Assembly: GCA_017882375.1 (NCBI GenBank)
Contig: JADGPP010000003.1
Coordinates: 9,961-73,960 of the forward strand
From: Solirubrobacteraceae bacterium
GTDB taxonomy: Bacteria; Actinomycetota; Thermoleophilia; Solirubrobacterales; Solirubrobacteraceae
Direction of reading: 5' to 3'
Length of the DNA stretch: 64,000 bases
A program made the translations under genes and the position numbers. Below are positions 44,900-59,707 of the stretch, piece by piece; the stretch's first letter is position 1, and the number at the start of each line of letters is the position of its first letter. Under the pieces are notes generated by a model. It was not told the origin of the DNA. It made no database searches and saw only the letters and a list, made by a program, of their open reading frames with translations.

Positions 44900-44968
44900 C
44901 GCAGCAACAGTAGGCGCTTGCCGGGACGTTTGCGGGCGGTGTGGACGAGCAGACGATGGGCGCGAAGA

Positions 44969-54333: not shown

Positions 54334-56109
54334 CTACAGCAGGCTGTTGGTCATGCGTTCGACCTCGGCGATCGACGTCACGCCTTCGCGCACCTTGTCC
54401 AGGCCGTCCTCGCGCAGGCGGCGCATGCCTTCGCGCACCGCCACCGTGACCATCACGTCGACAGACGCACGCTCGAGGATCAGCGCGCGAATGTGCTCTG
54501 AGACCGTCATCACCTCGTACACGCCCACGCGGCCGCGGTAGCCCGAGCCGCCGCAGCGCGAGCAGCCGACGGCCTCGAACGGTTCGGCGCCCCTCAGTCC
54601 GTGCTCGGCAAGCACCGTCTCGGAGACCTTCAAAGGCCTCTTGCAGTGTTTGCACAGCACGCGCACGAGGCGCTGGGCGACGATGCAGTCGACCGCCGAG
54701 GAGACCAGAAACGGCTCGATGCCCATGTCGATCAGGCGCCCCAGCGCGCTCGGCGCGTCGCGCGTGTGCAGCGTCGTCAGCACCAGGTGGCCGGTCAGCG
54801 CAGCCTCGATCGAGATGTGCGCAGTCTCCGCGTCGCGGATCTCGCCGACCATGATCACGTCTGGGTCCGCGCGCAGCATCGAGCGCAGGCCGACGTCGAA
54901 CGTCACGCCCGCCTTCGGCGCGATCTGCATCTGCTTGATCCCCGCGATCCGCTGCTCGACCGGGTCCTCGATCGTCAGGATGCTGCGCTCGCCGTCGTTG
55001 AGGTCGTTCAGCGCCGCGTACAGAGTCGTCGACTTGCCCGAGCCCGTCGGGCCGGTCACCAGCACCGCGCCGTTTGGCTTGTTGATCGCCGCGCTGAACG
55101 GCTTGAGCGTGTGCGCCGGCATCCCCAAGGACTCCAGCCCGGCGATCACCGTGCCCTTGTCCAGCACGCGCAGCACCACGCCCTCTCCGTAGACCAGCGG
55201 CAGCGTGACCACGCGGATGTCCACGCGGCGCCCGTCGACCGTCAGCGCGAAGCGGCCGTCCTGCGGCACGCGCTTCTCTGAGATGTCCAGGTCGGCCATG
55301 ATCTTGATGCGCGAGACCACGCCCATCGCCATCTTGCGCTTGACCGTCGCCGCCGGCGACAGCACGCCGTCGACGCGGAACAGCACCTGCGTGTCGCCCT
55401 CTTCCGGGTTGATGTGAATGTCCGAGGCGCCCTGCTGGATCGCCTGCGCGACGATCGAGTGCACGAGCTTGATGATCGGCGCGTCGCTGTCGGCCTCGTC
55501 GACGCGCAGGTCCTCCTCTTCGTCGGCTTCCGCGTCGCCGTCGATGATGTCTTCGATCGAGTCGTCCATCCGCGCCATGCGCGCCACCAGCAGGTTCAGG
55601 TCCTCGACCGACGCCGCCACCGGCCTGACGCGGCGGCCGGTCATCATCGCCACGTCGTCGATCGTCAGCACGTTCGTCGGGTCCGCCATCGCCAGCAGCA
55701 GCGTGTCGTCCTCGGCGAAGCCGATCGGCACCGCCTGATAACGCTTGGACGCTTCCGCGTTCAGCAGCGCCACCGCGCCCATGTCCAGGTCGTAGATCGC
55801 CAGGTCGACGTAGTCCAGGCCGAAGCGCTCGGCCACCACGCGCGCGAGCTGGTCGTGGCGCAGCACGCCCTGCTCGACCAGCACCAGCCCCGTCGGGCGG
55901 CCCTGCATCCGCGCCTGCTCCACCGCGTCGTCGACCGTCTCGCGGTCGGCGAAGCCGAGATCGACGACCACTTCGCCGATCATCCGCGTCGAGCGCCCCG
56001 TGCGATGGGGCGGGTACAGACCGGTGCCGTTGCCGACCGGCTCGCTGCTGGTCTGCTCTGTCGCGTCGGCCGTAGCCGACTCGGCCGTCGGCGCGCCGAT
56101 GTCGCTCAT
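54334..56109 (-). CDS. GspE/PulE/PilB-family secretion/pilus ATPase
   Basis: N-terminal MshEN/T2SSE_N-like region, ASDIHINP, PQDGR, GPTGSGKSTT, EDPVE, MVGEIRD, CKHC/CSRC zinc site; AGGAG ribosome-binding site. Confidence 0.92.
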   Translation of the reverse strand: MSDIGAPTAESATADATEQTSSEPVGNGTGLYPPHRTGRSTRMIGEVVVDLGFADRETVDDAVEQARMQGRPTGLVLVEQGVLRHDQLARVVAERFGLDYVDLAIYDLDMGAVALLNAEASKRYQAVPIGFAEDDTLLLAMADPTNVLTIDDVAMMTGRRVRPVAASVEDLNLLVARMARMDDSIEDIIDGDAEADEEEDLRVDEADSDAPIIKLVHSIVAQAIQQGASDIHINPEEGDTQVLFRVDGVLSPAATVKRKMAMGVVSRIKIMADLDISEKRVPQDGRFALTVDGRRVDIRVVTLPLVYGEGVVLRVLDKGTVIAGLESLGMPAHTLKPFSAAINKPNGAVLVTGPTGSGKSTTLYAALNDLNDGERSILTIEDPVEQRIAGIKQMQIAPKAGVTFDVGLRSMLRADPDVIMVGEIRDAETAHISIEAALTGHLVLTTLHTRDAPSALGRLIDMGIEPFLVSSAVDCIVAQRLVRVLCKHCKRPLKVSETVLAEHGLRGAEPFEAVGCSRCGGSGYRGRVGVYEVMTVSEHIRALILERASVDVMVTVAVREGMRRLREDGLDKVREGVTSIAEVERMTNSLL

Positions 56110-56203
56110 ATCTCCTACATCGGCAGCGATGCGGCGCCGCTTGACTGCGTGTTCTCGGGGGTGCCCAGGGGGGCTCACGCCAGCCAAGCAAATCGCGACT
56201 TCG

Positions 56204-56905
56204 CTAGGGAGTGTCGCCTGTCGGCCTGTCGACCAGACATAGTCCGTTGAGCTGCAGCCAGTGGCGCTCGCGGTCATCGTCGCGACCTTGGTAGGCGCGA
56301 GCGAGCCCAAGCATGAGGAACGCCCCCACGCCGCGTCTGAGCCGCAACCTGACGCTCTGCACGACCCGATCCCTGATCGTCTTCTGGTCCTCTGCGTAGA
56401 AACGTATGTCCGTCACCGAGACATACGCCTGAGGATCGACGTCATCGATCTTGAGCCGCAGCTTTCCGTAGCGGTCGACTTCGAGCTCGGGGCGTTTGCG
56501 CGCTCGGACGACCGCCAGCGAGCGGTCTCCGCACCCTCGTTCGACGGCGTAGTTCCAGCGCAAGCGTTCGAGCGCGGGGCCGAAAGCGCTCGAGATATCC
56601 GGTGAGCTGACCATTTCGAGCAGCGCCAAGAACTCGTCACCATCCATGTCCTCGACGAGGCGAGCACATGCGGTCCTGAACCTGTGGTCCTCGGTCTCCG
56701 GCGGCGTGGGGGCCGGCTGAGTCGCTCCGAGCTCGACCACCGCTCCCATCCTGAACGGCCCACCCTCCTCGCGCAGTAGATCCCGCGTGATCGGATCGCT
56801 GGCAGGCGTCGTCGGCCGCACATGCTCGAACGACTCGATGTCCACGCCCGCGACGCAAATACGCGGCGCACCCATCCTCGTGACGTGGTTGGCGACGATC
56901 CGCAT
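56204..56905 (-). CDS. Dual-OB-domain-like hypothetical protein
   Basis: N-terminal VTRM...ICVAGVD motif, SVTDIRF, LGLARAY...WLQLNGL; third gene of the DUF488 cassette; family assignment from recall. Confidence 0.6.
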   Translation of the reverse strand: MRIVANHVTRMGAPRICVAGVDIESFEHVRPTTPASDPITRDLLREEGGPFRMGAVVELGATQPAPTPPETEDHRFRTACARLVEDMDGDEFLALLEMVSSPDISSAFGPALERLRWNYAVERGCGDRSLAVVRARKRPELEVDRYGKLRLKIDDVDPQAYVSVTDIRFYAEDQKTIRDRVVQSVRLRLRRGVGAFLMLGLARAYQGRDDDRERHWLQLNGLCLVDRPTGDTP

Positions 56906-56908
56906 CGC

Positions 56909-57346
56909 TCACAAATGCACGGGATGTACATCGGGCCATCGGCCAGCCAGGTACTCGCAGACCAAGCGCCGATGGCAGTGCTCAGCCGTGGCCTCACTGC
57001 ACAGGAGAGCGGTGGGCGTACGAAAGTCAGAGATCGAGAGTCTGCTCTCGATCTCGCGACTCGCCATCAACTCGAGGAACTGCGCTTCGTAGGCCGACCA
57101 GTCCCCTTTGCGCTTCTTGTACTCGTCGAGCAGCCCTTGCGTTGGAGCGAGCAGTGGCTCGTGTTCGTAGGTGGCCCCGATCAGCTCCTGCAGGAAGTAC
57201 GGGAGGTCCTTGGCCTTGGCGAAGCCGGCCAATTGCGACGTGTTATTCAGGCGCACATCGAGCAGCCGCGTGACACCTGCATCAGCTAGGCGCTTGAAGA
57301 AACGCTCAGCCGTCGTCTGTGTGAAACCGATTGAGTAGATCTCCAC
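56909..57346 (-). CDS. DUF488 family protein
   Basis: IYSIGFT, LLDVRL..SQLAGFAK, LLCSE..AEHCHRRLV. Confidence 0.88.
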   Translation of the reverse strand: MEIYSIGFTQTTAERFFKRLADAGVTRLLDVRLNNTSQLAGFAKAKDLPYFLQELIGATYEHEPLLAPTQGLLDEYKKRKGDWSAYEAQFLELMASREIESRLSISDFRTPTALLCSEATAEHCHRRLVCEYLAGRWPDVHPVHL

Positions 57347-57879
57347 GGTGTCTGCTCATCCTCCAAGAGTGTGCATTGTGCATCGTCGGACAGCGCCACG
57401 GAACGCTCCGTGCGAATAGTCCCATCTGGAAGAATATGCCGAAGTTCGACTCCTCGGTCGGTTAGGACCTTTCCAACCAGCAGCCGCCGGTGGCAGTGCT
57501 GCGGGTCTCCCTCGCTGCAGAGCAGTGCGATCCGGTGGCGCCGTGCACCGGCAATGAGGCGCTCTATCGCAGCCTCGAAAGCCTTCTCTTCGGACATCGG
57601 GCCGTAGAGGGCGTGGCCGTCCGCGTCGTAGTGCTCGTCTCGCGTCGGACGGCCTCCGAGCTCCTCTCCGAGGAACAGATAGCCCACGCCCCGCCGAGCC
57701 ATCGCGGCCTCGAGCTCATCCCGATTGAAATGTGGCGCGAAGCGCGAGTAGGGGAACGACCGCACATCTACGAGGAACTCGATCTGCCCACTTGAAACGA
57801 GCTGCGCAAAGTCATCGAACTCGTGGTTGGAGTGGCCGACCGTCCAGATAGCAAGACGCGAAGACATCGTTCTCGTCAT
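57286..57879 (-). CDS. DUF488 family protein
   Basis: WTVGHSNH, LVDVRSFPYSRFAPHFN, LGEELGGRP, LLCSEGDPQHCHRRLL; 3' end overlaps the next gene by 61 nt. Confidence 0.88.
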   Translation of the reverse strand: MTRTMSSRLAIWTVGHSNHEFDDFAQLVSSGQIEFLVDVRSFPYSRFAPHFNRDELEAAMARRGVGYLFLGEELGGRPTRDEHYDADGHALYGPMSEEKAFEAAIERLIAGARRHRIALLCSEGDPQHCHRRLLVGKVLTDRGVELRHILPDGTIRTERSVALSDDAQCTLLEDEQTPWRSTQSVSHRRRLSVSSSA

Positions 57880-57888
57880 GGTAAGGCC

Positions 57889-58809
57889 CTAGAGCCCACC
57901 CTCAAAGGCCCCCTTGACCTGCGCGTCGAGTGCGTTCAGGCGATACAGCGCCAGCGCCTCGGCCGAGGCCAAGCGCTGGCCGGAGGCCGCCTCCGCGCCG
58001 TGGTGCAGCAGCACGCAGTGCTCGAGCGCCAGGCGGCGCTCGCCCTCCAAGATCGTCGGCATGTGGCCTGCGAGCACGCGCATTCCCAGCTCGATGTGCC
58101 CCAGCAGGCGTCCTTCTGGGCTGCGCGCGATCTCCGCGCCGTAGGTGAACTCGCGCGTCTTGCCGATGTCGTGCACGATCGCCGCGCTCAGCAGCATGTC
58201 GCGATCCAGGCGCGGGTGCAGCGTGCACAGCTCCAGCGCCAGCGTCGCCACGGCCACCGTGTGCTCCAGCAAGCCGCCGAGGTACGCGTGGTGGACCCCC
58301 GGGCGCGGGCGCGGGCGACTAGACGGCGCCGAGCACGGTGCGACGCGCAGCTGCGCGCGAAGCTCGCCGTCGCCCAGCATGTTCGCCAGCAACAGCTTCA
58401 GCGGCGCGTCGAACACCTCGCGCGCGAGGTGTTCGAGGAAGCCCTCCAGCTCGTCCAGGTCGCGGTAGGCCGTCGGCAGAAACCGCGCCGGGTCGGCCTG
58501 CTCGCCCTCGGCGCGCGCGATCGACTGAACGGCGATCTGCAGCGCGTCGCGGAAGCGCTCGGCACGCCCCTGCACGCGCACGAGCTCGCCGCGCTCGAAG
58601 CGCCCCGCGAGCACGTCGGCGTCGCGAAAGGCCCGCCCGAGGATCGTGCCCGTGCTGTCCGACAGCTCGATGTTCAGATACGGCGTCCCCGCGCGCGAGA
58701 TCTGGCGCTCCTTGCGCGTGCACGCGAACACGCCGTCGACCTCCTGCTGGTCGCGCAGAGTCGCGATGCTCTGGGCGATCTCGCTCGGCGGAGTCGTGGC
58801 GGAAGCCAT
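57889..58809 (-). CDS. OB-fold plus HD-domain protein (YhaM/Cbf1-like 3'-5' exoribonuclease)
   Basis: YLNIELSDSTGTI OB domain, HHAYLGGLLEHT, HDIGK, GRLLGHI, HHG. Confidence 0.85.
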   Translation of the reverse strand: MASATTPPSEIAQSIATLRDQQEVDGVFACTRKERQISRAGTPYLNIELSDSTGTILGRAFRDADVLAGRFERGELVRVQGRAERFRDALQIAVQSIARAEGEQADPARFLPTAYRDLDELEGFLEHLAREVFDAPLKLLLANMLGDGELRAQLRVAPCSAPSSRPRPRPGVHHAYLGGLLEHTVAVATLALELCTLHPRLDRDMLLSAAIVHDIGKTREFTYGAEIARSPEGRLLGHIELGMRVLAGHMPTILEGERRLALEHCVLLHHGAEAASGQRLASAEALALYRLNALDAQVKGAFEGGL

Positions 58810-58834
58810 CGGCCCATGATGTACGGTGGTTCGG

Positions 58835-59707
58835 ATGCAGCCGCTCATCTGGGATCGCCGTCCGGACGGCCTGAGGGCCCCCGCGATGGTCTGCGCGTTT
58901 CAAGGCTGGAACGACGCCGGAGACGCCGCCTCCAGCGCCGTCTCCTTCCTCGCCTCCTCGCTCGACGCGCGCCGCTTCGCGCGCATCGACTCCGAGGAGT
59001 TCTACGACTTCCAGGCCAACCGGCCCAGCGTGCAGTTCAACGACGACAACGAGCGCGAGATCGTCTGGCCGACCGTCGAGGTCTTCGAGGCCTCCGCGCC
59101 GCGCGCGCCGCGCGACCTCGTGCTCGTGCAGGGCGTCGAGCCCTCGCTGCGCTGGCGCGCATTCAGCGCGCACATCGTCGACCTCGCCGAAGCGCTCGGC
59201 GTGCAGGTCGTCGTCTCACTCGGCGCGCTGCTCGGCGACGTGCCCCACACGCGGCCCGTCGCCATGTCCGGGCACGCCTCAGACCCCTCGCTGATGGAGC
59301 GCCTGGGCATGCAGGGCTCGACCTATGAGGGGCCGACCGGCATCGTCGGCGTGTTGCACAACGCCTGCGTGCAGGCCGGCCTGCCGTCGGCGAGCCTGTG
59401 GGCGGGCGTACCGCACTACGTCGCCGCCGCCGCCAACCCCAAGGCCGCGCTCGCGCTCGTGCGCCGCGTCGAAGGCCTGATCGGCGTGTCCGTCGACGTC
59501 TCCGAGCTGGAGTCCGCCGCCGCCGACTACGAGCGTCAGGTCGGACTGGCCGTGCAGAGCGACCCCGAGATCCAGGCGTTCGTCGAACGCCTCGAGCAGG
59601 CCGCCGAAAGCGACGAGGAGGTCTCCACCGACGACGTTCCCTCCGGCGACATGCTCGCGCGCGAATTCCAGCGCTTCCTGCGCCAGCGCGGACACGAGAG
59701 CAAGTAG
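58835..59707 (+). CDS. PAC2-family (proteasome assembly chaperone-like) protein
   Basis: AFQGWNDAGDAAS, EEFYDFQANRP, EPSLRW, GDVPHTRP, YEGPTGIVG, VPHYV, FQRFLRQ. Confidence 0.9.
   Translation: MQPLIWDRRPDGLRAPAMVCAFQGWNDAGDAASSAVSFLASSLDARRFARIDSEEFYDFQANRPSVQFNDDNEREIVWPTVEVFEASAPRAPRDLVLVQGVEPSLRWRAFSAHIVDLAEALGVQVVVSLGALLGDVPHTRPVAMSGHASDPSLMERLGMQGSTYEGPTGIVGVLHNACVQAGLPSASLWAGVPHYVAAAANPKAALALVRRVEGLIGVSVDVSELESAAADYERQVGLAVQSDPEIQAFVERLEQAAESDEEVSTDDVPSGDMLAREFQRFLRQRGHESK

Follow-up and report, generated by a model that had tools for sequence, protein, structure and literature searches.

What does a low-GC operon of two DUF488 paralogues and a dual-OB protein do in the chromosome of an actinobacterium? 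The question is raised by a 64,000-nucleotide (nt) stretch of DNA, here called the window (GenBank GCA_017882375.1, contig JADGPP010000003.1, positions 9,961 to 73,960 of the forward strand), from the 3.57 Mb metagenome-assembled genome of a Solirubrobacteraceae bacterium. At positions 56204-57879 the window carries a cassette of three co-oriented minus-strand open reading frames (ORFs) in the order D488_1 - D488_2 - DuOB; the first two are the only DUF488 genes of the genome. An earlier note on this DNA, made from the sequence alone, had taken the cassette for a module of anti-phage defence or of damaged-DNA processing. Both readings are live and they are mutually compatible; the PafBC-type promoter described below favours the second. 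We see about an even chance that the cassette encodes a complex, linked to the DNA-damage response, that processes DNA ends or lesions. This reading is favoured because the promoter class is shared with core repair genes, UvrA or UvrB is encoded beside solo homologues, and the OB protein resembles DNA binders. A scan of 185,579 species genomes gave 297 related loci, and the counts of related loci below refer to the best 80 of these 297.

Identity and predicted folds of the three proteins

The triad is securely identified as PDC-M45, a system of the PADLOC catalogue, in a B-C-A-ordered variant with a DuOB too divergent for the PADLOC models. The identification is made because D488_1 and D488_2 match the B and C models and the DuOBs of the same operon elsewhere match PDC-M45A. 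When PADLOC was run, a check that the earlier note had suggested, D488_1 matched PDC-M45B (7.8e-54, 180 bits) and D488_2 matched PDC-M45C (3.3e-63, 210 bits); PADLOC, with its four PDC-M45A models, matched neither the window DuOB nor two other Solirubrobacterales DuOBs at E<=0.1. Where the operon occurs in Acidobacteriota and on two plasmids, its DuOBs match PDC-M45A at 1e-39 to 2e-88, and the window DuOB is homologous to these PDC-M45A-type proteins through Pfam DuOB and a shared alignment.

In Pfam, both paralogues belong to DUF488 (PF04343; gathering cut-off 22.2), D488_1 at 1e-24 (87.9 bits) and D488_2 at 5.6e-22 (79.1 bits). D488_2 alone is also a member of DUF488-N3a (PF22751), scoring 41.9 bits against a 27-bit gathering cut-off, whereas D488_1 reaches 24.2 bits. 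Neither matches the 'inactive' DUF488-N3i model at E<=0.01, and both keep the Cys, His and Arg residues. The third protein matches Pfam DuOB (PF22557; 7.9e-10, 39.6 bits, cut-off 27), a large family with 4,581 representatives at E<=1e-3, one relative being fused to an HRDC domain. Homologues are publicly annotated as 'putative nucleic acid modification protein with dual OB domain', and NCBIfam holds a model for none of the three proteins.

The DVR and CxE-x5-CHR motifs that the earlier note had pointed out are present in the translations of both DUF488 proteins, and its picture of two paralogous catalytic subunits with an OB-fold nucleic-acid binder agrees with the conserved residues and the predicted structures. 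Invariant residues of D488_1 in a 31-sequence alignment include T13, G15, H16, S17, D38, R40, G75-P78, C121, C129, H130, R131 and R132; those of D488_2, in six Solirubrobacterales copies, are D30, R32, C116, E118, C124, H125, R126 and R127. The AlphaFold2 model of D488_1 has a core with pLDDT >86 and a low-confidence, disordered tail (residues 160-197). In the core, strand 117-121 ends in C121 and a helix runs from residue 130, opened by C129-H-R-R. Protein tyrosine phosphatases (PTPs) and dual-specificity phosphatases recur among its weak fold matches (E ~0.02, TM 0.35-0.45), which suggest that the DUF488 pair are Cys enzymes of a PTP/rhodanese-like fold.

The AlphaFold2 model of DuOB, built on a 41-sequence alignment, consists of two OB barrels (pLDDT 96.3). 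Its best folds in the PDB are HIN-200 domains (AIM2, IFI16, p202), the two-OB single-stranded DNA-binding protein (SSB) of Thermus and Deinococcus, POT1 and RPA70, all weak (TM 0.3-0.45, E 1e-3 or worse); these nearest structural analogues bind DNA. Residues C17, A19, R30, E72, S129, L130 and D166 are invariant in an alignment across three phyla. A sequence search of the PDB found no solved relative of D488_2 or DuOB.

A short linear motif marks the disordered tail of D488_1: 67 of 76 homologues have Q-x-x-L-[FL] there, 29-31 residues (35 in two) before the C-terminus, compared with 1% of control windows. Its Q, L and F are nearly invariant in the D488_1 alignment; distant plasmid homologues have DFF or DLF in its place and miss the Q. 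The motif resembles the bacterial clamp-binding pentapeptide, QL[SD]LF-like, for DnaN. It may be a beta-clamp-binding peptide or, equally possible, a peptide that docks a partner subunit. Separately, the DinB of the host (L137, G000:C166, 112-1326) ends in QMALPV, a plausible clamp-binding hexapeptide; this is compatible with clamp binding by the tail, not decisive.

A promoter class shared with repair genes

Relatives of the cassette have a conserved element that moves along with it, directly upstream of D488_1: yGTCnG, 10 variable bases and TAsCAT, both ends being conserved around the variable spacer. An ATG or GTG follows 6-9 nt after the -10 box, and this distance implies a leaderless mRNA. 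In a search for GTC-N12-TANNNT, 52 of 60 actinobacterial copies had the element in a fixed position and 1 of 13 copies from Acidobacteriota and Armatimonadota had it, against a background of 0.2% of random 80-nt windows. Ahead of radA and recJ the motif recurs in 27 of 29 and 26 of 30 relatives, respectively; in the controls it precedes PAC2 in 1 of 30 and the window-type OB-HD gene, the cassette's neighbour, in 0 of 30. Membership of this OB-HD gene in the same regulon was accordingly rejected.

The window genome itself has GTC at the exact offset from leaderless -10 boxes in 27 cases, compared with ~10 at other offsets. Its 30 annotated motif-bearing genes include those for UvrA (C156:34701-37694), RadA (C9:1710-3140), RecJ (C93:31876-33633), XseA (C42:22740-24194), a DEDD exonuclease and a HolA-like protein, as well as ThyX, ScpA, an OB-HD paralogue (C153:14139-15188), DUF4238 proteins and DUF2397 proteins, the latter of which we take to be JetA of type III Wadjet.

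Mycobacterial PafBC promoters combine a canonical -10 box with a -26 element that holds a conserved GTC, and they have no -35 (Mueller et al. 2021, PMC8635444). Judged by sequence and spacing, GTC-N12-TANNNT is probably the Thermoleophilia version of the PafBC regulon. The strict mycobacterial motif, TGTCRGTG-N8-TANNNT, has zero matches in the window genome; the parts in common are the GTC core and its spacing. A PafBC-like WYL protein is encoded in the window genome, adjoining the OB-HD paralogue. Its gene follows that of the paralogue as a ~710-aa fused PafB-PafC-like protein at G000:C153:14139-17400 (L228), and the same pair is seen at L041:10712-13930 and L070:12215-15445; since the pair carries the -26/-10 motif, it may regulate itself. 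In two relatives cassettes lie beside this pair, at two different points, a further link to DNA repair.

The window copy departs from the pattern. It has kept a TACCAT -10 box and lost the -26 GTC element, the stretch being occupied by the OB-HD stop codon. The one exact GTC-N12-TANNNT match in the whole window is at 44907-44927, with none at the cassette. The GTC half is likewise lost in 5 of 6 same-site relatives; same-site L047 keeps the full motif. The suggestion in the earlier note that the cassette may share the OB-HD transcript suits this copy, which is probably transcribed by read-through from OB-HD. The remnant also bears on the start of D488_1. Because the annotated ATG (57879) falls within the conserved TACCAT box and most homologues start at the ATG corresponding to 57867, the true start is probably ATG 57867, giving a protein of 193 aa.

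The invariant 61-nt overlap

In 74 of 76 related loci, spread over three phyla, the overlap between D488_1 and D488_2 measures exactly 61 nt. The stop codon of D488_1 is formed by positions 2-3 of the D488_2 Leu20 codon and the next base, with the solutions CTA|G (TAG), CTG/TTG|A (TGA) and CTA|A (TAA). Where residue 21 is Ala or Gly, Leu20 is encoded by the rare CTA (or TTA), which makes TAG; where residue 21 has an A-starting codon, Leu20 is CTG or TTG (TGA), or CTA or TTA (TAA). A stop is present at this position in 77 of 77 copies counted. The compensating Leu20 and residue-21 codons, with a stop in all 77 copies, therefore indicate that selection acts on the position of the D488_1 stop. 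The overlap may set the B:C subunit ratio. A programmed -1 frameshift fusing D488_1 to D488_2 was considered as a general feature and rejected: most Thermoleophilia copies have a stop 6-9 nt before the D488_2 start, and there is no slippery site in common, A-runs being found in some Acidobacteria only. Invariant across three phyla, the overlap offers a clear natural example of how selection can act on the architecture of overlapping genes.

Distribution and mobility

The best 80 loci lie mostly in Solirubrobacterales, with others in Gaiellaceae, Thermoleophilaceae, Acidobacteriota and Armatimonadota, and their flanks represent ~40 or more distinct contexts. The B-C-A triad is kept in nearly all of them; ~10 are truncated or miss a gene. 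Within the genus, DuOB occurs in 36 of 251 genomes (14%), and in ~28 same-genus relatives OB-HD adjoins pilB with no cassette between them. In one close relative the same site holds a decayed copy, in which a deletion has fused D488_2 to DuOB, and another relative carries the cassette on the far side of PAC2. Cassette GC is lower than that of the flanks in 70 of 75 related loci.

In a tree of B and C, Actinomycetota stand apart from Acidobacteriota and Armatimonadota, the Armatimonadota copies grouping with one from Bryobacterales (Acidobacteriota). The window cassette belongs to a well-supported group of 11, which is spread over at least 4 different chromosomal sites, and large clades inherit the cassette vertically at one site. 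Of the horizontal acquisition inferred in the earlier note, the accessory and mobile character stands, as seen from the empty sites, the patchy occurrence within the genus, the decayed copy and the low GC; vertical conservation with host-like composition was looked for and is not what these copies show. The low GC does not point to a recent import from another phylum: by the tree, the cassette moves within its own long-standing lineage, with low GC as a lasting trait. Neither an integrase nor flanking repeats of note (terminal direct or inverted) were found at the window insertion, in line with the earlier note, which had seen no integrase or target duplication.

Intact copies are under purifying selection, with dN/dS of 0.10-0.23 for all three genes. 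In the same genome pairs (window versus L044, L047, L048, L051, L055 and L062), dS is 0.74-1.7 for the cassette genes and 0.24-0.54 for the flanking core OB-HD and PAC2 genes, a two- to threefold difference for which exchange of alleles or a weaker codon bias may account. Besides the divergent window type, the genus has a second DuOB lineage, which is canonical (Pfam E 1e-29 to 1e-43) and occurs in nine other genomes (e.g. G232:C10:702758-703387, G099, G198 and G009).

The OB-HD gene next to the window cassette has orthologues (E <1e-75) in ~50 of the 60 same-genus genomes searched; it is a core gene of the genus and lies outside the module. The cassette was inserted between this gene and the promoter of pilB. 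Four separate insertion points lie near the two OB-HD paralogues, which is suggestive, but the events are few and regionally clustered, and a functional link between cassette and OB-HD is not claimed.

Homologues of D488_2 are present on 124 plasmids, 81 of them typed as conjugative, and in no phage records. The common form in enterobacteria and Comamonas is a solo C-type gene in formaldehyde-resistance islands, next to a gene for a UvrA paralogue or to genes for an AAA_13 ATPase and UvrB. Such solo DUF488-N3a loci are L133 (Escherichia coli IncX5 p1585m1_D, NZ_CP086392; 4158-7432) and L136 (Comamonas plasmid NZ_CP043574; 2074-7734), in which the gene is placed between a UvrA-like or AAA_13 gene and a UvrB gene. 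One Solirubrobacterales genome has a solo DUF488-N3a of host-like GC3 (0.93) directly after ParB and a bifunctional-nuclease (BFN) gene (L121:8488-10438), which may be a domesticated form.

Functional readings

On the reading given an even chance above, DuOB would bind DNA, whether single-stranded, an end or a junction, and present it to the two paralogous Cys-dependent enzymes of PTP/rhodanese-like fold. At a DNA terminus or adduct, these would take off a phosphate- or sugar-linked group or transfer it. The Thermoleophilia operon has a leaderless PafBC-type promoter of its own and would so join the damage regulon of radA, recJ, uvrA and xseA. The window copy, which has lost the -26 element, is probably transcribed by OB-HD read-through, and purifying selection continues to act on it. 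A fuller version, which we hold only tentatively and think rather unlikely as a whole, makes the triad a so far unrecognised, horizontally mobile DNA-repair pathway of the actinobacterial PafBC regulon, not an anti-phage one. It would clear a specific block at a DNA end, or an adduct (a crosslink remnant, for example, or a sugar-phosphate adduct), perhaps tethered to the replication clamp through Q-x-x-L-F and with its subunit ratio set by the 61-nt overlap.

Several points weigh against DNA-end or lesion processing. The fold matches are weak (E ~1e-3 to 1e-2). PafBC control is read from motif geometry alone, in an order outside the PafBC studies; about one third of the motif matches in the window genome precede unrelated genes, probably by chance; and for the window locus, which lacks the -26 element, damage control is drawn from the copies of relatives. 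The earlier note knew of no experimentally defined function, and the literature searched likewise gave no experimental paper on the triad, neither biochemistry nor genetics for its members. Defence genes are typically patchy in occurrence, prone to decay and persistently low in GC, as is the cassette; of the canonical A-B-C plasmid triads, one in Agrobacterium neighbours CBASS and one in Allochromatium is set within a type III CRISPR-Cas locus; and the very definition of the PDC candidates is one of embedding in defence loci.

The last three points are at the same time arguments for defence against phages or plasmids, in which DuOB would sense invading DNA or replication intermediates and the DUF488 enzymes would stop the invader's replication, either by modifying or blocking DNA ends or by processing a nucleotide-derived signal. 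PADLOC lists B and C as PDC-M45, and its A component equals DuOB. The PDC set comprises 145 untested defence candidates, found by 'guilt-by-embedding' in BREX, DISARM or type I restriction-modification loci (Payne et al., bioRxiv 10.1101/2024.01.29.577857; PADLOC-DB v2), and all 145 share that candidate status, PDC-M45 being one of many. The context evidence comes from twelve annotated neighbourhoods, and the ten chromosomal B-C-A contexts cut both ways. In Capsulimonadaceae a HEPN gene lies directly upstream of the cassette, and one Thermoleophilaceae copy stands beside an insertion sequence (IS) fragment, a DUF4238 gene and an ABC-type ATPase gene; but 8 of the 10 chromosomal contexts are plain housekeeping, and no defence system could be recognised within 10 kb of them. 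Defence systems, too, can be under the control of WYL-domain regulators, which suits defence as well, as do the many insertion sites and the decayed copies. The promoter class shared with core repair genes and the UvrA or UvrB paralogues that accompany the closest solo homologues speak against it, and we consider defence less likely than not but still a serious rival.

The housekeeping neighbours could be read differently again. In independent contexts, genes directly adjacent or close by encode Dus, KsgA, MiaA, aminoacyl-tRNA synthetases and the YhaM-like OB-HD exoribonuclease homologue, and Burroughs and Aravind reportedly described, in 2023, a superfamily that includes enzymes acting on RNA termini. 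The DUF488 enzymes might then heal RNA ends (2',3'-cyclic or 3'-phosphate, 2'-phosphate), with the OB protein binding RNA, as in RNA-end or tRNA repair. Such neighbours are common anyway, however, and the pattern is a plain observation without statistics; the best structural analogues of DuOB are DNA binders, and the promoter class and the UvrA/UvrB association point to DNA, which makes RNA repair improbable. Least probable is a selfish, addiction-type module that, like a toxin-antitoxin (TA) system, persists through post-segregational effects and not host benefit: the cassette is small, mobile, low in GC and inserted at many sites, and some loci have TA modules within 10 kb, but no toxin or antitoxin family was matched, purifying selection is similar on all three genes, either DuOB or D488_2 is missing from decayed copies, in no evident order of loss, and large clades inherit the cassette vertically at one site.

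What would follow if the promoter link to radA, recJ, uvrA and xseA is true is threefold. Damage induction and PafBC dependence can then separate repair from immunity; embedding in defence loci would be seen to pick up DNA-repair modules also; and the DUF488 proteins, members of a large family without known chemistry, would point to a new pair of enzymes for DNA ends or adducts.

Layout of the locus

The coordinates (Table 1) bear out the layout given in the earlier note: three tightly packed co-oriented genes with the 61-nt overlap and a 3-nt gap between D488_2 and DuOB, set between pilB, downstream, and the YhaM-like OB-HD gene, whose stop lies 9 nt upstream of the cassette. The higher A/T content and atypical codons that the note remarked on are also found, cassette GC being 0.60-0.65 and GC3 being 0.68, 0.75 and 0.80, against 0.90-0.94 in five neighbouring genes.

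Table 1. Features of the cassette and its borders, in window coordinates
Feature	Position	Strand	Remarks
pilB promoter-like element, retained downstream of the insertion	56107..56145	-	GTCAAG ... GCCGAT ... ATG 56109
DuOB (tandem OB fold; divergent relative of PDC-M45A)	56204..56905	-	233 aa
D488_2 (PDC-M45C type, DUF488-N3a 'active' subclade)	56909..57346	-	145 aa; GTG start; -1 frame relative to D488_1
Dual-coding overlap D488_1/D488_2	57286..57346	-	61 nt; last 20 codons of D488_1 and first 20 codons of D488_2
D488_1 (PDC-M45B-type DUF488)	57286..57879	-	197 aa as annotated; predicted PTP/rhodanese-like core and disordered C-terminal tail
Q-x-x-L-[FL] linear motif (QCTLL here) in the D488_1 tail	57364..57378	-	from alignment and count
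TACCAT, remnant -10 box of the cassette promoter	57878..57883	-	abuts the OB-HD stop
OB-HD (YhaM-like) gene, core neighbour outside the cassette	57889..58848	-	orthologues across the genus

By sequence comparison, the pilB element also lies upstream of pilB in empty-site relatives (L012-L039), and the arrangement of GTCAAG, ~17 nt, GCCGATA and then ATG is conserved genus-wide. On the other side, the OB-HD and PAC2 ORFs are divergent and, as annotated, share 23 nt at their starts (58826-58848); the real OB-HD start may be a later ATG at ~58809.

Comparison with known systems

The cataloguing of PDC-M45 and the Pfam families DuOB and DUF488-N3a were already known. New here are the invariant 61-nt overlap with its compensating codon pairs and the PafBC-type promoter on most actinobacterial copies. 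With catalogued PDC-M45 the cassette shares the same three protein families in one compact co-oriented operon. It differs in gene order, B-C-A here and A-B-C on the Agrobacterium and Allochromatium plasmids; in the B/C overlap, 61 nt here and 4-11 nt in the plasmid triads; in its mostly housekeeping neighbourhoods; and in the promoter that the B-C-A clade carries. With its DuOB divergent from all four PDC-M45A models, an entire soil-bacterial clade has an A component that escapes current PADLOC models.

The Pfam names DuOB and DUF488-N3a are said to stem from the 2023 work of Burroughs and Aravind, which reportedly predicted DNA-end processing in biological conflicts. The window proteins resemble this DUF488-N3/DuOB system, of the RapZ-C-DUF488-DUF4326 clade, in matching PF22557 and PF22751. 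DuOB is like the tandem-OB DNA binders in having two predicted OB barrels per chain; unlike them, it has no sequence similarity to that group and has its own invariant Cys/Arg/Glu/Ser/Asp set.

The solo DUF488-N3a proteins are 54-56% identical to D488_2, have the same length and motifs, and match PDC-M45C at 1.1e-67. They differ in standing without the B paralogue and DuOB, and in their neighbours, which besides the UvrA paralogue or AAA_13 and UvrB include frmR, fghA and alcohol-dehydrogenase genes. The likeness to PafBC promoters lies in a GTC 12 nt upstream of TANNNT, the lack of a -35, the leaderless start and the repair genes among those sharing the motif. The differences are the hosts, Thermoleophilia here and mycobacteria in the PafBC studies; the regulator, which here looks like one fused PafB-PafC-like protein; and the window cassette itself, which lacks the GTC element that most of its actinobacterial relatives carry.

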